DNA of 36,849 nucleotides, from the IMG/VR virus record IMGVR_UViG_2663763326_000006; one strand, 5' to 3'. The DNA comes from a virus (taxonomy: Duplodnaviria; Heunggongvirae; Uroviricota; Caudoviricetes). The position numbers and the translations under genes are program-made. Position 1 is the stretch's first letter, and the number at the start of each line of letters is the position of its first letter. Under the pieces are notes generated by a model that saw only the letters and a program-made list of their open reading frames with translations, was not told the DNA's origin and made no database searches. Below are positions 8,696 through 36,849 of the stretch, in pieces.

Positions 8696-9052
8696 ATGAG
8701 CAAATATATAGGAGAGCGCGTTATTTCTGTGAGGAAGAAAGCAGGGTTGAACCAGAGAGAATTTGCAGCTCGTTTAGGTATTTCTAATGGTGGTATCAGT
8801 CAGATTGAAAATGGAAAGGCGATGCCTGGAGGGGAGTTTCTGTTAAAGATGCATCAAGAGTTTAATGTTGATGTAAATTGGTTGCTCACTGGAATGAGCA
8901 CAGATGGTATGACTAGAAACCAGAATCAAATTTCCCCAGAAAAACAAAAACTAATAGATACTTTTGACGACATGACACCAGACCAACAACGCTCATTTCT
9001 TGAGATTGGGCGATTCTATACTCAGCCAAAACCAGGAAAAATCGCAGGCTGA
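8696..9052 (+). CDS. XRE-family HTH repressor (118 aa)
   Basis: N-terminal HTH LNQREFAARLGISNGGISQIENG; markedly AT-rich gene; divergent from early operon. Confidence 0.6.
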   Translation: MSKYIGERVISVRKKAGLNQREFAARLGISNGGISQIENGKAMPGGEFLLKMHQEFNVDVNWLLTGMSTDGMTRNQNQISPEKQKLIDTFDDMTPDQQRSFLEIGRFYTQPKPGKIAG

Positions 9053-10123: not shown

Positions 10124-10339
10124 TTATCCGGGGCGATTTTCTGACCTTATCCGGTCCAGGGCATAAGTAATACCTTCTGCAAAAACAGAAGTATCAAACT
10201 GCTTTTGTATTCCCTGAAAATGAAAAGCGGCACGACAGACACTCAGTTCTCCGCGGTATAACCGGATAATATCTTCCAGAACATTGTTCACTGCTTCAGC
10301 ACGGCGCTGATGTTCTGTTAACGTTAATCGGGGATTCAT
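10124..10339 (-). CDS. hypothetical small protein (71 aa)
   Basis: ORF upstream of the methyltransferase; start codon overlaps the divergent start of the 134-aa ORF. Confidence 0.35.
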   Translation of the reverse strand: MNPRLTLTEHQRRAEAVNNVLEDIIRLYRGELSVCRAAFHFQGIQKQFDTSVFAEGITYALDRIRSENRPG

Positions 10340-13938: not shown

Positions 13939-14483
13939 TGGCCAGACGCAGCACAATAGAAAAGCTGCCGGAAGACGTGCGCCGCTGGCTTGAACGGGCG
14001 CTGACTGAATCCGGCTTCAGCGGGTATAACGAGCTGGAGTCACTGTTGCGTGAGCGGGGGTACGTCATCAGCAAATCCGCTATCCATCGCTATGGACAGA
14101 AGATTGAGCGCCGCTATGGTGCTATCCGTGCGGCAACAGAAGCGGCCCGCATGCTGACCGAAGGCGCAGCAGACGATCAGGATGCGCGTTCGGAGGCTGT
14201 GATAGCCCTTATTCAGACCGAGCTGTTCGAGAGTATTGTCCAGTTGCAGGAGGCGGAAGAAGGCGAAGTCGATCCTAAAGAACGCGTGGCCCTGCTGTCG
14301 AAGGTGGCGAAGAATGTGGCTACGCTGTCCCGCGCGTCCGTCAACCTCAAAAAGTTCCAGTCTGAAGTACGGGCCAGAGCGCAGCAGGCAGCCAGCAACG
14401 CCGAGAAAATTGCCCGTAAGGGGGGACTGTCAAGCGACGCAGTACAGGCGCTTCGTCGCGAGATTCTGGGGATTGCCACATGA
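13938..14483 (+). CDS. terminase small subunit-like protein (Mu gp27 family, 181 aa)
   Basis: Immediately upstream of, and overlapping, the large terminase; N-terminal HTH-like RRSTIEKLPEDVRRWLERAL. Confidence 0.55.
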   Translation: MARRSTIEKLPEDVRRWLERALTESGFSGYNELESLLRERGYVISKSAIHRYGQKIERRYGAIRAATEAARMLTEGAADDQDARSEAVIALIQTELFESIVQLQEAEEGEVDPKERVALLSKVAKNVATLSRASVNLKKFQSEVRARAQQAASNAEKIARKGGLSSDAVQALRREILGIAT

Positions 14484-16075
14484 CAAAATCATCCGGAGTG
14501 ATTTTAAACGCCGCTGGCGGCGGCCCCGAAGGGATGAGTCCCATGGACGGGAGGAATAACCTTGCTCCCGTTTTGCCTGATACCTCGGCGCTGGATGCCC
14601 CTCCCGTTCTGTTGCCTTACCAGCAGCGCTGGGTGGCAGACACCTCTCCGCTTAAGGTGATAGAAAAGAGCCGTCGTACCGGTATTACATGGGCTGAGGC
14701 ATCCGATAACGTACTGACCGCCGCCTCTTCTGCGCCAGCAGGCGGGATGAATGTGTATTACATCGCTTATAACCAGGACATGACCGTCGAATACATTCAG
14801 GCGTGTGCGATGTGGGCACGGGCATTCAACTATGCGGCCAGTGAAATTGAAGAAGGATTCTGGGAAGAGGACGACGACGACAAACACATCAAGACTTACA
14901 CCATCAAATTTCCTGACTCCGGCTTTCGTATTGTTGCGCTCTCCAGCCGCCCGTCTAACCTGCGTGGCCGTCAGGGTATTATTGTTATCGACGAAGCGGC
15001 GTTCCATGAGCAACTGGACGAACTGCTGAAAGCGGCGCTGGCGATGCTTATCTGGGGGGGAAAGGTACGCGTTATCTCCACCCATGACGGTGACGACAAT
15101 CCGTTCAATACGCTTATCGGGGATATCCGTGCCGGACGTCAGGGAGGCAGCATACATCGCATCACTTTCCGGGAAGCCGTATCTGAGGGGCTGTTCCGGC
15201 GCGTCTGTCTGCGCACCGGGAAGGAATGGTCGGAGGCATCCGAGCAGGCCTGGATGGCATCGGTGTACAAATTCTACGGTGCCGGCGCATCCGAAGAGCT
15301 TGACTGTATTCCGGCCAACGGTGGCGGTGCCTGGCTGTCCCGTGCCCTGATAGAGTCCCGCATGTCCGCTGATACGCCGGTATTGCGTCTGACCTGCAAG
15401 GAAGGTTATGAACTGCTGTCTGATGAGGTTCGCTTCCGCGAGACGCAGGACTGGCTTGATGAGTATCTGAAACCATTGCTGGAGGCACTCCCCACTGATG
15501 CCCGCTCTTTCCTGGGGCGCGACTTTGGCCGTAGCGGTGATTTGTCGGTGGACTATCCCCTGCTGCAGGAGAAGAACCTGGTACGACGCGTGCCATTCGT
15601 ACTGGAGCTGCGTAACGTGCCGTTCAGACAGCAGGAGCAAATCACCTGGTATCTGATGGATGGCCTGCCCGGTCTGCTGGGTGCAGCGTTTGATGCCCGT
15701 GGTAATGGTGCCTATCTGGCTGAATACGCCATGCAGCGCTACGGCTCCGGCCGGGTTCAGCAGGTGATGCCAACCGAAGGCTGGTACCGGGAGCATATGC
15801 CTCCGGTCAAAGCTGCACTGGAAGACGGCAACCTGGTGGACTTACCAAAGGATGAAGACACACTGGATGACCTGCGGGCCGTTCAGGTGGTGAACGGTGT
15901 CCCCCGCGTACCGGAGCAACGCTCAAAAGCAAAGGCTGACGGTGGTAAACGCCACGGGGATTCAGCCATCGCACTGGCGCTGGCGTATTTCGCCAGCCGT
16001 GAAATTAACAAAGGGCCGGTGAAGGCAAGCTCACGCCGTCGTCGTCAGGCGGCCCGTATGCTGGAGGGATTCTGA
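14480..16075 (+). CDS. terminase large subunit (Mu gp28-like, 531 aa)
   Basis: Size, ATPase N-terminal region with acidic Walker-B-like IIVIDEAAF, synteny with portal. Confidence 0.85.
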   Translation: MTKSSGVILNAAGGGPEGMSPMDGRNNLAPVLPDTSALDAPPVLLPYQQRWVADTSPLKVIEKSRRTGITWAEASDNVLTAASSAPAGGMNVYYIAYNQDMTVEYIQACAMWARAFNYAASEIEEGFWEEDDDDKHIKTYTIKFPDSGFRIVALSSRPSNLRGRQGIIVIDEAAFHEQLDELLKAALAMLIWGGKVRVISTHDGDDNPFNTLIGDIRAGRQGGSIHRITFREAVSEGLFRRVCLRTGKEWSEASEQAWMASVYKFYGAGASEELDCIPANGGGAWLSRALIESRMSADTPVLRLTCKEGYELLSDEVRFRETQDWLDEYLKPLLEALPTDARSFLGRDFGRSGDLSVDYPLLQEKNLVRRVPFVLELRNVPFRQQEQITWYLMDGLPGLLGAAFDARGNGAYLAEYAMQRYGSGRVQQVMPTEGWYREHMPPVKAALEDGNLVDLPKDEDTLDDLRAVQVVNGVPRVPEQRSKAKADGGKRHGDSAIALALAYFASREINKGPVKASSRRRRQAARMLEGF

Positions 16076-21141: not shown

Positions 21142-21927
21142 ATGGGAACCACTCAGCAGGTCATTCTGATCACAACCGTAACGGCAGGGGCAGCACTGGC
21201 ACAGCAGCGTTTTGTCGGGGCAGATAATACCCCCTGTAAAGCCGGTGCCGCAGCGCTCGGGGTTGCCGAAGTGGATGCTGTTACCGGCGACAGCACGCCG
21301 GTGAGCGTTCTGGGCATTATTGCTGTCGAGGCCGGGGCCGCTGTCAGCCGTGGTGTGGCTGTTCAGTCAGATGCTCAGGCCAGAGCCGTGCCGCAGTCCG
21401 GCGACGGTAAATCCTGTGGTATTGCACTTGATGAAGCCGGGGTGAAGGCGACGTCATTCGTATCCTGCGCGGGGTGTGACATGTACTGCACCCTGGAGGA
21501 TTTGCTTGCGCAGGTGCCGGAGCGGACGCTTATCGAGCTCACCAGTGAAGAGATGGACTTCGACTCACCTGCAACAGTGAATACCCGTGTGGTGGACAGC
21601 TGTATCCGCTATGCCGACGAGCTGATTGATGCCCATCTGCGCGGACGCTATATCCTGCCACTGGCAGAGATACCGACTGTTCTGCGGGACATTGCCATCA
21701 CGCTGGTCCGTTACCGGCTCTACGCCCGCCGCCCGGAAGGTGACCTCCCGGATACGGTGAAGGATGACCACAAAGAAGCGCTGCGGCAACTCAGGGAGTT
21801 ACGTGATAACAGGCTCACGCTGGGGCTGCCGTCCACTCAGAAAGATGTGCCTGAGCCTGGCGAGTTTCGTGTACGCAGTCGCCCGGCCACTTTCGGCGGT
21901 CGTGACGGTTTACTGGAGAAATACTGA
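21142..21927 (+). CDS. two-domain head-associated protein: DUF2190-like N-terminus fused in frame to Mu gp36-like C-terminus
   Basis: Gly/Ala/Val-rich N-terminal 112 aa; internal MYCTLEDLLAQVPERTLIELT resembles the usual start of gp36 (DUF1320) proteins. Confidence 0.5.
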   Translation: MGTTQQVILITTVTAGAALAQQRFVGADNTPCKAGAAALGVAEVDAVTGDSTPVSVLGIIAVEAGAAVSRGVAVQSDAQARAVPQSGDGKSCGIALDEAGVKATSFVSCAGCDMYCTLEDLLAQVPERTLIELTSEEMDFDSPATVNTRVVDSCIRYADELIDAHLRGRYILPLAEIPTVLRDIAITLVRYRLYARRPEGDLPDTVKDDHKEALRQLRELRDNRLTLGLPSTQKDVPEPGEFRVRSRPATFGGRDGLLEKY

Positions 21928-24961: not shown

Positions 24962-25297
24962 ATGTCACAGACCCCATCCGATACTTTTAAATTGTCTTAT
25001 CCCTTCACCACTGCTGCAGGCACCAGAATTGAGCTGGTTGAACTGAAACGCCTGACGGTAAAAGACCTGAAGCAGGTGCGCAAAATCAGCAAAAACCCGG
25101 CAGACTGGGACGAACCGCTGATTGCCCGCAGTACTGGTCTTCTCCCGGAGGATCTCGACAATATGGATCTGGCTGATTACCTGCAGTTACAGAAACGATT
25201 TCAGCTCATCACGGGGATGGGTGAGAGCAACCAGGGCGCTGACGCAGGCGCAGGGGCTGCTGGCGAGATGGTTCCGGTTTCAGCCGGGGGAGATTGA
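24962..25297 (+). CDS. tail assembly chaperone (P2 gpE-like, 111 aa)
   Basis: Small acidic protein between tube and tape-measure genes; overlapping ORF in +1 frame encodes an acidic extension. Confidence 0.65.
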   Translation: MSQTPSDTFKLSYPFTTAAGTRIELVELKRLTVKDLKQVRKISKNPADWDEPLIARSTGLLPEDLDNMDLADYLQLQKRFQLITGMGESNQGADAGAGAAGEMVPVSAGGD

Positions 25298-25379
25298 TGC
25301 CCTCGATACTGACGATCTGGAGATGTGGCTGGAGCAGGCTGAAGAGCAAATCAAAAGCGAGTACGGCGACAAATCATAG
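25287..25379 (+). CDS. frameshift extension of the tail assembly chaperone (E-prime-like)
   Basis: +1 frame reads EIDALDTDDLEMWLEQAEEQIKSEYGDKS from a GGGGG run three codons before the chaperone stop. Confidence 0.4.
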   Translation, partial: GEIDALDTDDLEMWLEQAEEQIKSEYGDKS

Positions 25380-25454: not shown

Positions 25455-28405
25455 ATGTCGGGACAGTTTTCAGTCGGCGTTGTTATCGGCGGGATGATTG
25501 GCAGCACATTCCGTTCTGCAATGAGCGGTACCCGCCGTGCGCTTGATTCCCTGAGCGATACCTCACGCCGCCTGCAGGAACGTCAGAACGCTTTAACCCG
25601 TGCAACAGAACGTTATGGTCAACTGGGTTCTTCCCGGATGCAGCATCTCAACAGCGAGCTGCTGCGGGTAAGCCGCACCATGGAGCAAATTGAGCGCCAG
25701 CAGCGCCGTCTGTCAGCGGCATCCGCTACCAGTGATGCGCTGAAAGCTAACCGCATGGCGCTGTATGGTCAGGGGATTGAAGCGTATGGCATGGCACAGA
25801 CTGTTTATCATACGGTTTCCCCTGCCGTTCAGCAGTCCATGTCTTTTCAGGACAAAATGATTGATATGTCGATCACCGCAAAATATGACAATAAAACGCG
25901 GGATGCACTTGCCGGACAGATAAAAGGCTGGGCGCTTAAATACAATCAGTATCAGGATGAGCTGCAGGAGGCGATGGGTTCACTCATCAGCGACAATATT
26001 GATAATGTGTCAGATATCGGTTTTCTGATGCCGGATATTGCCCGCGCGGCAACGGCAACACGCACGTCTGCTCAGGACTGGGCAAAAGTGGCCGCAGTCT
26101 GGCAAAACTCCCTGAAAGGCGCGGCCAGAGATTTTGGTGCCGTTCAGAATATTATGGCTTATGCCGGTGACCAGGGGTCATTTGAAATCCCGGATCAGGT
26201 CAAGTGGATGCAGTCCCTGGCCCCAATGATGGCGGGTATTGCCAGTGGAAAAGAGGCTGTTGCTGAAATCGGGGCCAGTCTCCAGATAGCAAAAATCGGT
26301 GCAGGTTCCACCGACGAAGCAGCCAATAATTTTAAAAACTTTCTTACCAAAATTTTTGCCCGCGATACTCAGAAACAGTTTGCTGATCTGGGTATTGATT
26401 TGCAGGGATCTATTGCGAGTTATAAAGCTGCGGGGATCTCTCCGATTGAAGGGATGTTGAGTGTTATAGAACGTTACCTCAATGCCAAAAGCCCCGAAGC
26501 GCTGGCCGGCTTCAAATCAGCCATGAAAATAAAGAATGATACGGCAAGAGATGAGGCACTTCAGGCTCTGGCGAAAAACTTTGGTCTGGGCGATATGTTC
26601 GCGGATATGCAGGTCATGGCATTTATCCGCCCGATGCTGGCCAACATGGACAGATATCGAGAGATCCGTGCCGGTGCTCTCAGGGCTGCGGATAACGATT
26701 TGCTTGCCAGTGCTTATGATCAGCGGCTGAAATCTCCCCTTGAAGCCACTAAAACACTTATGGTCAGCAGTCGCGATCTGGCAATTACGCTGGGCGATCA
26801 ATTAGCTCCATCTTTTATTTCTCTGACTCAGGACTTGCTCCCACTCATTCAGGGGACAAAACACTGGGTGGCGACTCACCCGCAATTTGTCAGTGGGGCT
26901 TTTAAGCTCATCAGTGCGCTCCTTGCGATTAAGATAGCGACTGTTGGTCTCAAACTGGGGCTGAATCTCCTTATTTCCCCCTTTGTGAACGTCTGGAAAA
27001 CTGCTGTTTTACTCCGGACCAACTGGCATCGACTGACTACCGCACTCGGAGAAGGTGGCAAATTACGCTGGCTTGTCACTGGATTCAGCCGACTGACCAG
27101 CGGAGGACTGAAACTCAGCAAAGTTCTGGCGGGCAGCCTCGTTCGCGGTTTTATGAGCGCTGCACGTGCCGTTCTCTGGATTGGGCGAGCGCTGATGATG
27201 AATCCCATCGGTCTCGTTATCACCGCTGTCGCGGCAGCAGCTTACCTTATCTACCGCAACTGGGGGCAGTCAGTGGCTGGTTTAAACAGCGCTGGGCTGA
27301 CATTCAGGAAGCCTTTAACGGCGGTATCGCGGGAACTGGTAAGCTGCTGATTAACTGGTCGCCGGCAGGCCTGCTCTATAAAGCCTTTGCGGCTGCGCTG
27401 AAATATTTCGGCGTTACTCTGCCGGCAAAGTTCACCGACTTCGGTGGCCATCTTATCGACGGTTTGATTAACGGTATCAAAAACAAATGGGGGTCGCTCA
27501 AATCCAGTGTAACCGGAATGGGTGACAGCATCAGTAGCTGGTTTAAACAATGCTGGGCTGACATTCAGGAAGCCTTTAACGGCGGTATCGCGGGAACTGG
27601 TAAGCTGCTGATTAACTGGTCGCCGGCAGGTCTGCTCTATAAAGCCTTTGCAGCTGCGCTGAAATATCTTGGTGTTGATCTGCCGGCAAAGTTTACCGAC
27701 TTCGGTGGCCATCTTGTCGATGGTCTGATTAACGGTATCAAAAACAAATGGGAGTCGCTCAAATCCAGTGTAACCGGAATGGGCGACAGCATCAGTGGCT
27801 GGTTCAGCGAAAAGCTGGGCATTCATTCGCCGAGCCGCGTGTTTATGGGCTTTGGTGACAATATCGCGCAGGGGGCCGCCATTGGCCTGCAGCGGACCAC
27901 TCCGCTTGCAGCTCTGGCCGGGCAGCGAATGGCCAGTGAACTGCTCCCCAGAATGCCCGTGAGCATTCAGGGGCCAGAAATACGGGATAACACTTCAGGT
28001 GTTCGCTTCAGTATGCCGTTGCCCGATATCAATGGGTTTATGTCGTCTGCTAAAAATGCGATCGGAGCCGTAATCAATAGTTTGTCTTCCATGCCCGCTA
28101 TTCCGCTCTCCACCCGGGCATCGATTTTACCAGGGCAACGTCTGGCAAATGAGATGACACCGGATGTTCCCCGTATCCCCTCGCCTGAAATCCTGGCTGC
28201 CGGATATTCAGGCCGTGGTGCAGCTGCAACCGGCGGTGGAACGTCTGGTGGTATCCAGGTCAGCTTTAATCCTCAGTTTTTCCTCAATGGCAGGGAAACC
28301 ACAGCGCCTGCAGGACTGACTGGTGCCCTGAATATGAGTCTGCATGAGCTGGAAAAAATGCTGGAGCGTCTGCTGGCTCAGAAACAACGTAAGGAGTACC
28401 GCTGA
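25455..28405 (+). pseudogene. tail tape-measure gene split by a frame break (25455-27350 frame 0; continues in frame 2 to 28405)
   Basis: Frame 0 ends in a junk tail at 27350; frame 2 continues as a credible product from about 27267; break coincides with GGGGG at 27262-27266. Confidence 0.7.
27276..27797 (+). repeat. tandem direct duplication, 2 x 261 bp (87 codons), inside the tape-measure gene
   Basis: Two near-identical units (GCTGGTTTAAACA ... GACAGCATCAGT) differing at a handful of positions. Confidence 0.85.
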
Positions 28406-29289
28406 TGTTTGCCGTACTGGGTGATATTGAGTTTGAGCTGATTACCTACTGGGACGGCTTCGAGGCCACGTTCGGCGTCGATTATGCGGAGCATGCCCGC
28501 ATCGGGGGTAAGCCTGGTCTGCAGTTCGTCGGCGACAGGCTGGACGAAATCCAGATAACTCTGGTTTTCCATCAGCATTATTGTGTACCCGATGTGGAGC
28601 TGGCGAGACTGCGAACAGCCATGAAAGCCCATCAGGCACTGGCGCTGGTCTTCGGCAACGGTGACTATCGCGGCTGGTTCGTGATCACCGATGTGACTGC
28701 AACCAGCGAGCAGACTGACAGTACCGGCAACGTGCTGGCTGTCAGTGCCACCGTGTCTCTCCGGGAATACACCGGTGACCCGAAAAATCCTCTGCAACCA
28801 CCGGCAATACGCACGAAGCTCCCGGGTGTCGGGGCGGTCTCCGGTGCCATACCTTCACCTTCAGGGGTGGCGCAGTTCATCCGCAACGGCGTCAACTATG
28901 CGAAACAGGCGCAGTCTGTACTCCAGACCACTATCAGCGCCGTTCGGGTGACACAGAAAATGAAGGATAACCCCGTTGTCGCACTGACCCGTGTGCCGGG
29001 GCTGATGAGCGGACTGGGTAATATCTCCGGGGCTCTGGGGAAAAGTGTTCCGGCGTTTAACGCACTCTCTGAATCCATGCCCGATGCCATCAGTCTGGCC
29101 AGAACAGCCAGCGAAGCAGCCACGTATGTACAGCAGGCACAGTCTGCGCTGAGTGGTGTGGACAAAAGAAATATTGCAGGTGCTCTGGATACCGTTTCCG
29201 GGCAGCTTAACGCCGTCGGCACAGCATTCAACCGCATGTCTCCGGGATTAAGTGCAATGGCCGCCAGAATACTGACGAGGAGTGTGTGA
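28405..29289 (+). CDS. tail protein with P2 gpU-like N-terminal domain and C-terminal extension (294 aa)
   Basis: Position after tape measure in P2 gene order; start overlaps tape-measure stop. Confidence 0.45.
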   Translation: MFAVLGDIEFELITYWDGFEATFGVDYAEHARIGGKPGLQFVGDRLDEIQITLVFHQHYCVPDVELARLRTAMKAHQALALVFGNGDYRGWFVITDVTATSEQTDSTGNVLAVSATVSLREYTGDPKNPLQPPAIRTKLPGVGAVSGAIPSPSGVAQFIRNGVNYAKQAQSVLQTTISAVRVTQKMKDNPVVALTRVPGLMSGLGNISGALGKSVPAFNALSESMPDAISLARTASEAATYVQQAQSALSGVDKRNIAGALDTVSGQLNAVGTAFNRMSPGLSAMAARILTRSV

Positions 29290-29501: not shown

Positions 29502-30622
29502 ACAGCACTGCGCAAGTCACATCAGCGTTAACCGGCGTCAGCGATGTGCTGACACCGGTGTTCACTCTGTGGTATCTGCAGAAAAACATCACCTCTGATA
29601 TCGCGCCTTATGTCACCCGTGTGACCTGGAGCGATAACATCAAAAATGAGTCCGATACCATTGAGGTGGAGCTGGACGACACCGATGGCCGCTGGCTGGA
29701 TAAATGGTATCCGGGCAAGGGTGACACGCTGACGCTGAAAATGGGCTATCAGGGCGAGAAGCTGCTGTCCTGCGGTACGTTCTCTATAGACGAGATCGAA
29801 GTGAGTTCGCCCGCTTCCGTTGTTTCTATCCGTGGGGTGGCCACCTCGGTTAACAGTGCCCTGCGGACTAAAACCAGTCGTGGTTTTGAGAACACCACGC
29901 TGGCAGCTGTTGCGGGGCGGATTGCCAGAAAGCACCGGCTGAAACTGGTGGGCAGCATTGAGTCCATCAGAATCGACCGGGTGACCCAGTATGCTGAAAC
30001 CGACGTGGGTTTTCTGCGCCGGCTGGCCAGCGAGTATGGTTATGCAGTGAAAGTGGTCAGTGACCAGCTGATTTTTTCTCATCTGGCCACACTGCGCAGT
30101 CAGGAGCCGGTCAGGCAGTTAAAACCGCAGGATGTGGCCCGCTTTTCCCTGCGTGACACCATCAACCGGGTCTATAAATCTGCAAAGGTAAAACACCAGA
30201 AAAGCAGCAGTAAAAAACTGATCGTCTACGAAGCTGATGGTGGTACCCGTGAAAGCGACAAAAAGCTCAAAGGTGGTAAGGTTACCAGCGCTGACTCACT
30301 TAAAGTTAACAGCCGCGTCAGCGACCCGGACAGTGCCCGGATTAAAGCGGATTCAGCACTGGCCAGACATAACGAATACCAGCAGAACGGCTCCCTGACG
30401 CTGACGGGAACACCTCAACTGACAGCAGGCAACAAAATTGAACTGGTGAGTTTTGGGCAGTTATCCGGGCCATGGCTCATAACCACTGCCCGCCATGCGT
30501 TTGACCGTAACAGCGGCTACACCACAGAGCTGGAAGTGGCACGGGGCCAGTCACAAGAGGGAAAAAACAAAAAACTCAGAAACTCACGGTTTATCACCCG
30601 GATGGCAGTACATCGACGGTGA
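29489..30622 (+). CDS. tail protein D (P2 gpD / Mu P-like, 377 aa)
   Basis: Size and synteny between X-like and V-like genes. Confidence 0.75.
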   Translation: MAEINSTAQVTSALTGVSDVLTPVFTLWYLQKNITSDIAPYVTRVTWSDNIKNESDTIEVELDDTDGRWLDKWYPGKGDTLTLKMGYQGEKLLSCGTFSIDEIEVSSPASVVSIRGVATSVNSALRTKTSRGFENTTLAAVAGRIARKHRLKLVGSIESIRIDRVTQYAETDVGFLRRLASEYGYAVKVVSDQLIFSHLATLRSQEPVRQLKPQDVARFSLRDTINRVYKSAKVKHQKSSSKKLIVYEADGGTRESDKKLKGGKVTSADSLKVNSRVSDPDSARIKADSALARHNEYQQNGSLTLTGTPQLTAGNKIELVSFGQLSGPWLITTARHAFDRNSGYTTELEVARGQSQEGKNKKLRNSRFITRMAVHRR

Positions 30623-31258: not shown

Positions 31259-31288
31259 AGCGTTCCCGCACGGGGGCAATACTGCCCC

Positions 31289-31635
31289 ATGAAAACAACC
31301 TCAGTATTCTGGCAACCAGCCCTGCAGGCTCCCGGCGAAATTGTCCGGGGGCTGGATGATATCCGGCAGGCGATTCAAATTATCCTGCGGACTCCCCGCG
31401 GCAGCGACCCGCATCGCCCGGAGTTCGGCAGCAATCTGCATCTTTATATCGACTGGCCTGTAGACCGGGCCATTCCGCATGTGGTGCGCGAATCCGTCGA
31501 TGCCATCCGGCGCTGGGAGCCCGCTGCCAGCTTATGTCAGTTAAACCCGCCGTCGACGGCGAACATCTTACGCTCCGGGTGAGCTGGAAAGGCTCAGACG
31601 GACAGACCCGGACTCAGGAGCTGCTATGGCGCTGA
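31289..31635 (+). pseudogene. baseplate protein W (GPW/gp25 family) with apparent single-base frame break
   Basis: Frame of ATG 31289 reads through RRWEP then junk; -1 frame continues RCQLMSVKPAVDGEHLTLRVSWKGSDGQTRTQELLWR to a stop overlapping J; break at CCC 31520-31522. Confidence 0.65.
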
Positions 31636-33300: not shown

Positions 33301-34550
33301 TTATGGGAAACCTGAATGAAACAGAAAAGTGGGAAGAAAATATCTATCAACTGGAGACATCAGATCCGGTTCTGGGTGGTGCAGACGGGATATCAAATCG
33401 AGCCCCCCGGCAACTGGCAAACAGGACGAAATGGCTGAAGAAGAAAACGGAGGAAGCCGCACAGTCACTGGCTGAACACGTACGTTCCCGTAACCACCCG
33501 GACGCGACACTGACAGCTAAGGGGTTCACCCAACTGAGCAGTGCCACCAACAGCACCTCTGAAACGCTGGCCGCCACACCAAAAGCGGTCAAGGCTGCAT
33601 ACGACCTGGCAGCCGGCAAGGCGCCTGCCAGCCACACTCACCCGTGGAGTCAGATAACGGGAGTGCCTGCGGCTTCACTGACGGCAAAAGGCACCGTACA
33701 ACTGAGCAGCGCCACGGACAGTCAATCAGAAACTGAGGCTGCCACGCCGAAGGCGGTCAAGGCTGCATACGACCTTGCAGCCGGCAAGGCGCCCGTCAGC
33801 CACACTCACCCGTGGAGTCAGATAACGGGAGTGCCTGCTGCCTCGCTGACGGCAAAAGGCACCGTACAATTGAGCAGTGCCATCAACAGCACGTCTGAAA
33901 TACTGGCCGCCACACCGAAAGCGGTCAAGGCTGCATACGATCTGGCAAACGGAAAACAACCGGCAGATGCCACGCTCACTGCTCTGGCAGGACTTGCCAC
34001 TGCAGCAGATCGGTTGCCTTATTTTACCGGAGCAGACCGCGCAGAGCTGGCAACCCTTACAGCTATTGGTCGCGCTATTATCGCTAAGGGCAGTATAAAA
34101 GATGTCCTCAATTACCTTGGTTTGGGGGAAGGCTCGGCGCTGCCCGTTGGTGTACCTGTTCCGTGGCCCACTGCCACACCGCCAGCAGGCTGGTTAAAGT
34201 GCGACGGGCGCGCCTTTACAAAAGAACAATATCCTGTTCTGGCCAGAGTCTACCCGACCCTCCGTCTTCCCGATTTACGCGGTGAGTTTATCCGTGGATG
34301 GGACGACGGGCGAAAAGTGGATACAGGGCGCGATCTGCTTTCACGGCAGGATGGTACAAGTTTTTCTCATTACGCAGGTAATTTTGACATTGGGTCTGGT
34401 CATTCAATCAATAACTATGACCAAATCGTTGACAACCAACCTGGATTCTCCCGTTTTTCATTTGCAGGTCCTTCGCGAGGCGATGGGGTTAATTATGTGA
34501 CCATTCGTCCCCGTAACATTGCGTTTAATTACATCGTAAGGGCGGCATAG
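33297..34550 (+). CDS. tail fibre protein with fibre repeats and C-terminal tail-collar-like domain (417 aa)
   Basis: Three tandem 56-aa repeats; C-terminal VPWPTATPPAGWLKCDGRAFTKEQYPVLARVY...LPDLRGEFIRGWDDG resembles the tail-collar domain. Confidence 0.8.
   Translation: MIMGNLNETEKWEENIYQLETSDPVLGGADGISNRAPRQLANRTKWLKKKTEEAAQSLAEHVRSRNHPDATLTAKGFTQLSSATNSTSETLAATPKAVKAAYDLAAGKAPASHTHPWSQITGVPAASLTAKGTVQLSSATDSQSETEAATPKAVKAAYDLAAGKAPVSHTHPWSQITGVPAASLTAKGTVQLSSAINSTSEILAATPKAVKAAYDLANGKQPADATLTALAGLATAADRLPYFTGADRAELATLTAIGRAIIAKGSIKDVLNYLGLGEGSALPVGVPVPWPTATPPAGWLKCDGRAFTKEQYPVLARVYPTLRLPDLRGEFIRGWDDGRKVDTGRDLLSRQDGTSFSHYAGNFDIGSGHSINNYDQIVDNQPGFSRFSFAGPSRGDGVNYVTIRPRNIAFNYIVRAA
33510..33950 (+). 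repeat. about 2.6 tandem copies of a 168-bp (56-codon) tail-fibre repeat
   Basis: Repeat units start at 33510, 33678 and 33846; encode LTAKGTVQLSSA...AATPKAVKAAYDLA. Confidence 0.85.
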
Positions 34551-34554
34551 AAAC

Positions 34555-34699
34555 GTTGGTTTAGGAGAAGGCTCGGCGCTACCCGTTGGTGTGCCTGTTC
34601 CGTGGCCCACCGCCACACCGCCAGCAGGCTGGTTAAAGTGCGACGGGCGCGCCTTTACAAAAGAACAATATCCTGTTCTGGCCAGAGTCTACCCGACCC
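34555..34699 (+). other. second tail-collar cassette fragment, direct repeat of 34115-34262, truncated by IS26
   Basis: About 145 bp roughly 95 percent identical to the start of the collar-domain region, ending at the IS26 boundary. Confidence 0.6.
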
Positions 34700-35519
34700 G
34701 GCACTGTTGCAAAGTTAGCGATGAGGCAGCCTTTTGTCTTATTCAAAGGCCTTACATTTCAAAAACTCTGCTTACCAGGCGCATTTCGCCCAGGGGATCA
34801 CCATAATAAAATGCTGAGGCCTGGCCTTTGCGTAGTGCACGCATCACCTCAATACCTTTGATGGTGGCGTAAGCCGTCTTCATGGATTTAAATCCCAGCG
34901 TGGCGCCGATTATCCGTTTCAGTTTGCCATGATCGCATTCAATCACGTTGTTCCGGTACTTAATCTGTCGGTGTTCAACGTCAGACGGGCACCGGCCTTC
35001 GCGTTTGAGCAGAGCAAGCGCGCGACCATAGGCGGGCGCTTTATCCGTGTTGATGAATCGCGGGATCTGCCACTTCTTCACGTTGTTGAGGATTTTACCC
35101 AGAAACCGGTATGCAGCTTTGCTGTTACGACGGGAGGAGAGATAAAAATCGACAGTGCGGCCCCGGCTGTCGACGGCCCGGTACAGATACGCCCAGCGGC
35201 CATTGACCTTCACGTAGGTTTCATCCATGTGCCACGGGCAAAGATCGGAAGGGTTACGCCAGTACCAGCGCAGCCGTTTTTCCATTTCAGGCGCATAACG
35301 CTGAACCCAGCGGTAAATCGTGGAGTGATCGACATTCACTCCGCGTTCAGCCAGCATCTCCTGCAGCTCACGGTAACTGATGCCGTATTTGCAGTACCAG
35401 CGTACGGCCCACAGAATGATGTCACGCTGAAAATGCCGGCCTTTGAATGGGTTCATGTGCAGCTCCATCAGCAAAAGGGGATGATAAGTTTATCACCACC
35501 GACTATTTGCAACAGTGCC
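34700..35519 (-). mobile_element. IS26 (820 bp, IS6 family), complete
   Basis: 14-bp terminal inverted repeats GGCACTGTTGCAAA at 34700-34713 and 35506-35519; flanking 8-mers CCCGACCC and GCCGCCGC differ. Confidence 0.95.
34752..35456 (-). CDS. tnpA: IS26 transposase Tnp26 (234 aa)
   Basis: Protein begins MNPFKGRHFQRDIILWAVRWYCKYGISYRELQEM, recognised as IS26 Tnp26. Confidence 0.95.
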   Translation of the reverse strand: MNPFKGRHFQRDIILWAVRWYCKYGISYRELQEMLAERGVNVDHSTIYRWVQRYAPEMEKRLRWYWRNPSDLCPWHMDETYVKVNGRWAYLYRAVDSRGRTVDFYLSSRRNSKAAYRFLGKILNNVKKWQIPRFINTDKAPAYGRALALLKREGRCPSDVEHRQIKYRNNVIECDHGKLKRIIGATLGFKSMKTAYATIKGIEVMRALRKGQASAFYYGDPLGEMRLVSRVFEM

Positions 35520-35633
35520 GGCCGCCGCCGGCATCGGCCTGGCGAACAGGAAACCCTGCACCGTGTCGCAACCCGCCTGCCGCAACCACGCAAGGCAGTC
35601 GGGTGTTTCCACACCCTCGGCTACCACCTCCAT
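35520..35633 (-). pseudogene. tnpM: Tn21-type urf2/tnpM remnant (EAL-domain C-terminal fragment), cut by IS26
   Basis: Minus strand encodes [37 protein letters not shown]; bounded by IRi on one side and IS26 on the other. Confidence 0.65.
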
Positions 35634-35658
35634 TGTCGTTTTCAGAAGACGGCTGCAC
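35634..35658. repeat. IRi, 25-bp terminal inverted repeat at the intI1 end of a class 1 integron
   Basis: Sequence TGTCGTTTTCAGAAGACGGCTGCAC. Confidence 0.85.
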
Positions 35659-35835
35659 TGAACGTCAGAAGCCGACTGCACTATAGCAGCGGAGGGGTTG
35701 GATCCATCAGGCAACGACGGGCTGCTGCCGGCCATCAGCGGACGCAGGGAGGACTTTCCGCAACCGGCCGTTCGATGCGGCACCGATGGCCTTCGCGCAG
35801 GGGTAGTGAATCCGCCAGGATTGACTTGCGCTGCC

Positions 35836-36849
35836 CTACCTCTCACTAGTGAGGGGCGGCAGCGCATCAAGCGGTGAGCGCACTCCGGCACCGCCAACTT
35901 TCAGCACATGCGTGTAAATCATCGTCGTAGAGACGTCGGAATGGCCGAGCAGATCCTGCACGGTTCGAATGTCGTAACCGCTGCGGAGCAAGGCCGTCGC
36001 GAACGAGTGGCGGAGGGTGTGCGGTGTGGCGGGCTTCGTGATGCCTGCTTGTTCTACGGCACGTTTGAAGGCGCGCTGAAAGGTCTGGTCATACATGTGA
36101 TGGCGACGCACGACACCGCTCCGTGGATCGGTCGAATGCGTGTGCTGCGCAAAAACCCAGAACCACGGCCAGGAATGCCCGGCGCGCGGATACTTCCGCT
36201 CAAGGGCGTCGGGAAGCGCAACGCCGCTGCGGCCCTCGGCCTGGTCCTTCAGCCACCATGCCCGTGCACGCGACAGCTGCTCGCGCAGGCTGGGTGCCAA
36301 GCTCTCGGGTAACATCAAGGCCCGATCCTTGGAGCCCTTGCCCTCCCGCACGATGATCGTGCCGTGATCGAAATCCAGATCCTTGACCCGCAGTTGCAAA
36401 CCCTCACTGATCCGCATGCCCGTTCCATACAGAAGCTGGGCGAACAAACGATGCTCGCCTTCCAGAAAACCGAGGATGCGAACCACTTCATCCGGGGTCA
36501 GCACCACCGGCAAGCGCCGCGACGGCCGAGGTCTTCCGATCTCCTGAAGCCAGGGCAGATCCGTGCACAGCACCTTGCCGTAGAAGAACAGCAAGGCCGC
36601 CAATGCCTGACGATGCGTGGAGACCGAAACCTTGCGCTCGTTCGCCAGCCAGGACAGAAATGCCTCGACTTCGCTGCTGCCCAAGGTTGCCGGGTGACGC
36701 ACACCGTGGAAACGGATGAAGGCACGAACCCAGTGGACATAAGCCTGTTCGGTTCGTAAACTGTAATGCAAGTAGCGTATGCGCTCACGCAACTGGTCCA
36801 GAACCTTGACCGAACGCAGCGGTGGTAACGGCGCAGTGGCGGTTTTCAT
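35836..36849 (-). CDS. intI1: class 1 integron integrase IntI1 (337 aa, complete; start codon at window end)
   Basis: Protein [40 protein letters not shown] ... [11 protein letters not shown] recognised as IntI1; R32 and H39 present. Confidence 0.97.
36734..36762 (+). promoter_or_regulatory. integron cassette promoter Pc, weak PcW variant (-35 TGGACA, 17-bp spacer, -10 TAAACT)
   Basis: Hexamers at 36734-36739 and 36757-36762 on the strand opposite intI1; no TGN directly upstream of the -10. Confidence 0.8.

Follow-up and report, generated by a model that had tools for sequence, protein, structure and literature searches.

In the DNA studied here the tail tape-measure gene of a prophage cannot be read in a single frame and carries a long tandem repeat just behind the point at which the frame changes, which raises the question whether the gene is truly broken and what the repeat is. 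The stretch analysed, referred to as the window, comprises the 36,849 nucleotides of IMG/VR record IMGVR_UViG_2663763326_000006. On its forward strand, the 5' part of the gene is an open reading frame of 631 residues (25455..27350), the last 27 of which, after Gly604, are out of frame; according to the list of open reading frames and their translations, its stop comes 28 codons past a GGGGG run on the same strand (27262..27266), the site of the frame change. Beyond this run the sensible tape-measure reading lies in another frame of the forward strand (27266..28405), from GCA, which encodes Ala605, up to the stop codon at 28403-28405.

The broken gene is a phage tail tape-measure gene, as seen from profile matches and operon position. 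Pfam family PF10145 matches residues 159-340 of the protein with 74.6 bits against a cut-off of 33.2, and PHROG 28, annotated as 'tail length tape measure protein', matches the product with an E-value of 1e-135. The gene lies 3' of the genes for the sheath, the tube and a frameshifted chaperone pair and 5' of the gpU, gpX and gpD homologues, and the order of the tail-operon genes is the same in the E. coli strains EC958 and JJ1886 and on other contigs. A sequence search of the PDB gave no match to a solved structure related to the tape-measure protein. As read in the window the gene has 2,951 bases; insertion in silico of one G at 27262-27266 yields one open reading frame of 2,952 nt and 983 residues, and the repaired protein does not differ at a single residue from the RefSeq protein of EC958, WP_000016538.1. 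The preliminary description, made from the letters of the window, was thus right in its assignment of the gene, in placing the frame switch at the GGGGG run and in expecting that one additional G would restore an open reading frame of roughly 980 residues.

A comparison with EC958, which belongs to E. coli ST131, showed 99.95% identity over 34.3 kb to a Mu-like prophage beside aroA, on the side towards ycaL. On these grounds we identify the window as Phi2, a Mu-like prophage of E. coli ST131 that was so named by Forde et al. 2014, with a 2,067-bp invertible tail-fibre segment (PMC4134206). EC958 and JJ1886 both have the tape-measure gene as an intact CDS of 983 residues (WP_000016538.1), and the Phi2 prophages of these strains have in common with the window the same gene bar one G, the same neighbouring genes, the position on the aroA side and the invertible tail-fibre segment. 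The window differs from them in the G5 run, in four more homopolymer deletions, in the orientation of the invertible segment and in a right end made up of IS26 and intI1. The invertible segment, located at approximately 34114-34700 of the window, is flipped relative to EC958, the crossover reading GGTTTGGGGGAA in the window and GGTTTAGGAGAA in EC958. The Phi2 prophage of JJ1886 itself contains an insertion of ISEc23, an IS66-family element, at 26363-28779 of locus L034, which neither the window nor EC958 has.

The right end of the window (34697-36849) contains IS26 and, behind it, intI1, the integrase gene of class 1 integrons; the two adjoin the cut-off tail-fibre module and take the place of the tail-fibre assembly gene, the invertase and the right end of the prophage. 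The junction of Phi2 with IS26 was found in no complete RefSeq E. coli genome and is either a private insertion of a resistance island or a misjoin of the contig. Through this replacement, which had escaped the preliminary description, the prophage may be defective or free to decay. A literature search on phage PhiKM, a close relative, and on the induction of ST131 Phi2 returned nothing relevant.

Over the whole length of the 2,951-base gene, the sole difference between the window and EC958 is the G run, with five bases in the former and six in the latter. The run is G6 in EC958, in JJ1886, on 13 IMG/VR contigs and in all other relatives examined, except for one (L004), which has G5 like the window, and the B7A prophage, in which the run is interrupted and reads TGGGGCGCT. 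Because of this interruption we do not regard the run as a conserved signal. Nor is the two-frame arrangement conserved: the homologues examined are in one frame with G6, save for L004 with its G5, for B7A with its interrupted run and for the complete genome of HS1496 (NZ_CP142382.1), in which a different G run of the same gene has a frameshift of its own. There, G5 has become G4 at gene position 2036, corresponding to window 27489-27493, and PGAP marks the gene as 'frameshifted'.

Searches of larger collections gave a consistent picture. A 100-base probe with the G5 run was searched against 5,426 complete E. coli genomes; 625 of them have the region, and in none of these did we find the G5 allele: the best matches had 99.0% identity with a span of 101 bases, equivalent to G6, and none had 100%. 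The corresponding G6 probe did give 100% matches in the complete E. coli genomes. A 30-mer with G5 had no matches in IMG/VR, in the species-representative genomes or in the JGI metagenomes, and its G6 counterpart matched 13 IMG/VR contigs. Neither G5 nor G7 alleles occurred among the best-ranked matches, where G6 was invariant over hundreds of genomes. Besides the window, the exact G5 product was present in one assembly (GCA_901669805.1), the contig of which has zero mismatches to EC958 and a set of indels unlike that of the window, without the IS26 junction and without the window's other four deletions. Tested for inheritance, the G5 lesion is not common to related genomes by descent.

The deletion in the tape-measure gene has company. 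Over 34 kb, the private differences of the window from both EC958 and JJ1886 consist of one substitution (position 8705) and five single-base deletions, all five in G or C runs of reference length 4-6; a further 3-bp difference, GTA at 10206, is peculiar to EC958 and not to the window. Four of the five deletions break late genes. The first, from G5 to G4 at 21439-21442, fuses the DUF2190 gene and the Mu-gp36-like gene into an open reading frame of 261 residues (21142-21927), and the second, from G6 to G5 at 27262-27266, breaks the frame of the tape-measure gene. A deletion from G5 to G4 at 30543-30546 changes gpD from 384 to 377 residues, and one from C4 to C3 at 31520-31522 changes gpW from 115 to 97 residues. 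The remaining one, from C5 to C4 at 31285-31288, lies just 5' of the gpW start codon, where it alters the spacer. Even though runs of at least five bases are mostly A/T in the window (97, versus 33 G/C), the deletions hit no A/T run.

Two of the other lesions recur elsewhere. The fused 261-residue reading frame is present on eight contigs and the 377-residue gpD on three, and on these contigs the other genes, including the 983-residue tape-measure gene, are intact wherever the contig covers them. The deletions at 21439-21442 and 30543-30546 recur singly and in unrelated assemblies, and exact-product look-ups of the three broken reading frames found no assembly with the same combination of lesions as the window.

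In wild-type E. coli, substitutions exceed indels by about 10:1. Given this ratio, at least five indels in six events have a probability of P ~5e-5, and five homopolymer deletions against one substitution in 34 kb would be a very improbable spectrum for natural decay. We considered a mismatch-repair mutator as the cause and judged it unlikely from the ratio of indels to substitutions, measured against general E. coli mutation spectra. Sequencing error offers a closer likeness: long-read-only bacterial assemblies typically retain errors in homopolymer length (PMC8812927, PMC9262707), and the long-read and 454-type errors described there and in PMC4134206 are, like the lesions of the window, single-base, confined to homopolymers, gene-fragmenting and accompanied by nearly no substitutions. 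The likeness to 454 data has a limit, since the 454 errors in EC958 (Table 2 of PMC4134206) are mostly in A/T runs, whereas the lesions of the window are deletions only and affect G/C runs only.

From these comparisons we consider it probable, at roughly 0.8, that G5 is a consensus under-call of G6 and that the tape-measure gene is intact in the organism and not a pseudogene. The consensus would read G6 as G5 at this site and would likewise under-call the four other G/C runs of the prophage, and the real gene would be the ordinary 983-residue ST131 allele, probably intact. This reading is favoured because the G5 allele is in no complete genome that has the region and because five private G/C-run deletions stand against one substitution; sporadic, non-inherited and site-specific lesions form the pattern of long-read-only or flow-chemistry assemblies. 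The preliminary description had left the choice between a defective tail and a homopolymer miscall. Comparative evidence favours the second, and a tail made defective by the frameshift loses ground, the G5 allele being private.

A true mutation, in which slippage removed one G and a decaying cryptic prophage was left with a pseudogene and no tails, seems unlikely to us, but it has arguments in its favour. With the right end replaced by IS26 and intI1 from 34697 onward, purifying selection on the prophage may already be gone, and the lesions affect four late genes. Slippage is naturally frequent in homopolymer runs, G/C runs included, and runs at least as long as those affected were not under-called in the window, where G6 at 14420, G7 at 15054 and C6 at 33403 keep their full length. 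The occurrence of G5 in two assemblies could in principle reflect shared descent, but the second contig has neither the IS26 junction nor the other four deletions. Against decay also speak the absence of G5 from the 625 complete genomes, the recurrence of single sites in unrelated, error-laden assemblies, and the spectrum itself: five events that are without exception deletions in G/C runs, with a ratio to substitutions that would be unlikely even in a mismatch-repair mutator. That the G run is instead a functional site, either phase-variable, so that a change between G5 and G6 switches the tape measure off and on, or slippery, so that -1 slippage rescues the full-length protein, we regard as very improbable. 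A -1 slip of tRNA-Gly on U-GGG-GG would indeed rebuild the wild-type sequence NWGAVSGWF, and compensatory frameshifting on G runs is known from herpesvirus thymidine kinase (PMC5009743). However, the run is not kept as a run in B7A, a stretch of six bases is short for phase variation, and the best-ranked matches show the same G6 throughout. A genuine G5 allele, for which a low level of -1 slippage would restore the wild-type product, is a lesser possibility than the length cassette discussed below.

The operon does contain a likely recoding site, one gene 5' of the tape measure. The tail assembly chaperone pair (24962..25379, forward strand) consists of an open reading frame with PF10109 (24962-25297) and an overlapping GpE-like frame that extends to 25379 in the +1 (equivalent to -2) frame. 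The overlap centres on a G5 run at 25286-25290, where the two frames would be joined if tRNA-Gly slipped by -2 from GGA to GGG. This arrangement resembles that of phage Mu, for which a -2 chaperone frameshift has been reported (PMC5009743), and programmed frameshifts such as those of lambda G/GT and Mu are real recoding sites located in the same operon. They differ from the case at hand in that the chaperone arrangement is conserved and sited in the chaperone gene, whereas the shift in the tape-measure gene has no counterpart as a conserved arrangement in relatives.

Under the preferred reading of an under-called G6, the repeat behind the run belongs to an intact gene. Tandem Repeats Finder reports it at 27270-27804 with a period of 261, 2.0 copies, 93% matches, no indels and a score of 958, starting 4 bases 3' of the G run. 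On the forward strand, unit A (27278..27538) and unit B (27539..27799) have 87 codons each and read WFKQRWADIQ...DSISS and WFKQCWADIQ...DSISG, respectively; of the two, unit B comes nearest to the unit found in the commonest ST131-like allele with one copy, whose signature is RLDVEG. The units differ at 16 of 261 nucleotides and at 6 of 87 residues, with eight synonymous and six non-synonymous codon changes. The repeat is far beyond chance, though diverged, so that the 2 x 261 bp tandem duplication of the preliminary description holds in size and place but not as 'near-perfect'.

Both edges of the repeat are formed by the same 13-nt sequence, TCAGTGGCTGGTT, at 27270..27282 on the left and, as a second identical copy, at 27792..27804 on the right, both on the forward strand. 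The first duplication probably started from this microhomology, through slippage or illegitimate recombination. We also considered whether the G run is linked to the repeat edge only four bases away and found no link; the junction of the duplication is the 13-nt sequence and not the run.

We further asked whether the repeat could be an artefact of assembly. The region is evidently hard to assemble, as the record of phage PhiKM, at 99.2% identity, shows a sequencing gap right within the repeat, and the one-copy allele P0103 is found mostly on draft contigs. But the two units differ at 16 positions with the frame kept, the same 2,952-nt gene is present in hundreds of complete genomes from many laboratories, and both unit types, A and B, are orthologous from one allele to another, which leaves an artefact with hardly any probability. 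Contrary to its earlier framing as a notable event of this prophage, the duplication is the standard ST131 allele, old and shared by hundreds of genomes.

The repeat appears to vary in copy number. In protein searches, intact tape-measure proteins fall into length classes of 896, 983 and 1070 residues, corresponding to one, two and three units with an exact spacing of 87 residues and with the repeat in register. For an estimate of their frequencies, we took an evenly spaced sample of 60 from the 636 matching complete-genome records and checked four of them by translation. The majority (42) have the two-unit gene of 2,952 nt, HS1496 among them with 2,951 nt and its own frameshift. Eleven show the three-unit pattern, the two that were checked being intact open reading frames of 3,213 nt and 1070 residues; one has an intact one-unit gene of 2,691 nt and 896 residues, and the remaining six are more divergent.

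Diagnostic residues show how these alleles are related. One-copy alleles (R-LDVEG, for example) begin with type A residues and end with those of type B, the breakpoint taking several different positions, and the reciprocal A/B chimera forms the middle unit of three-copy alleles, C-FAIGS for instance. In the three-copy alleles, 1 nt separates unit 1 from unit 2, whereas unit 3 differs from both by 15-16 nt. Since each of the two types, A and B, has its orthologues in the various alleles, the duplication that gave rise to them is old; more distant relatives, namely the B7A prophage and a contig of Klebsiella phage KP12 (62% identity), have a single unit. The chimeric units indicate that later gains and losses were recent and recurrent, by unequal crossing-over. 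We picture a history in which a single event, probably between two copies of the 13-nt microhomology, duplicated the 87-codon block that follows directly on the hydrophobic segment, and unequal homologous recombination would then have expanded and contracted the repeat, giving in-frame alleles with one, two or three units. Alleles that differ by whole units, together with chimeric units such as RLDVEG and CFAIGS, are what we found of a repeat with variable copy number.

Some of the one-copy calls may be the result of repeat collapse: the commonest one-copy allele is located mostly on draft contigs and has its breakpoint in the longest stretch that is identical between the units, where a collapse is also expected. 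Intact one-copy and three-copy reading frames exist in complete chromosomes. In two of the genomes with intact three-unit reading frames, SCU-101 (L016, 1501-4713) and MS20675 (L017, 1501-4713), PGAP calls two pseudogene fragments labelled 'incomplete; partial'; this split is an artefact of annotation that results from the additional repeat unit. The protein has a second in-frame length difference, a block of 71 residues (approximately 27938-28150 of the window, residues 829-899 of the repaired protein), which is found in tape measures of the ST131 type and is absent from B7A and KP12; the motifs on its two sides, GQRMAS and GQRLAN, resemble each other.

The tape measure's length sets the length of the tail (PMC9022992). 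In TP901-1, removal of 347 residues from the tape-measure protein shortened the tail from 118 to 65 nm, or about 0.15 nm per residue, and a duplication lengthened it (PMC5099701); at this rate, each 87-residue unit would add about 13 nm of tail. The preliminary description's expectation that the duplication, if expressed, would lengthen the tail is in accord with this ruler model. The tape measures gpH of lambda (Katsura 1987, cited in PMC9022992) and that of TP901-1 (PMC5099701) resemble the protein studied here in being long, in their PF10145 region, in hydrophobic segments at the centre and in internal repeats, and their in-frame deletions and duplications alter tail length in proportion. 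Yet lambda and TP901-1 are siphoviruses with engineered alleles, whereas here a Mu-like myovirus has a natural series of one, two and three copies of an 87-residue block.

For prophage annotation, the case of the G run is a caution that a gene of broken appearance does not amount to decay when the lesions are all single-base deletions in G/C runs and none is found in related genomes. The repeat sets two further traps, as assemblies from short reads have a gap within the 261-bp repeat or may collapse its units, and PGAP turns intact three-copy alleles into partial pseudogenes. The two-unit allele as such is already in RefSeq from hundreds of genomes, and a ruler protein whose length varies through repeats is textbook knowledge. 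The series of one, two and three copies is nevertheless a modest but usable natural resource on the control of tail length in myoviruses. We tentatively suggest, while thinking the opposite somewhat the likelier, that the 87-residue block is a natural length cassette: recurrent unequal crossing-over would supply this widespread family of Mu-like prophages with a standing set of one-, two- and three-unit tape measures, which would change the tail in steps of about 13 nm, maybe matched to different host envelopes or capsules. If so, the alleles could serve directly as a series on which to test the ruler model in a phage with a contractile tail.
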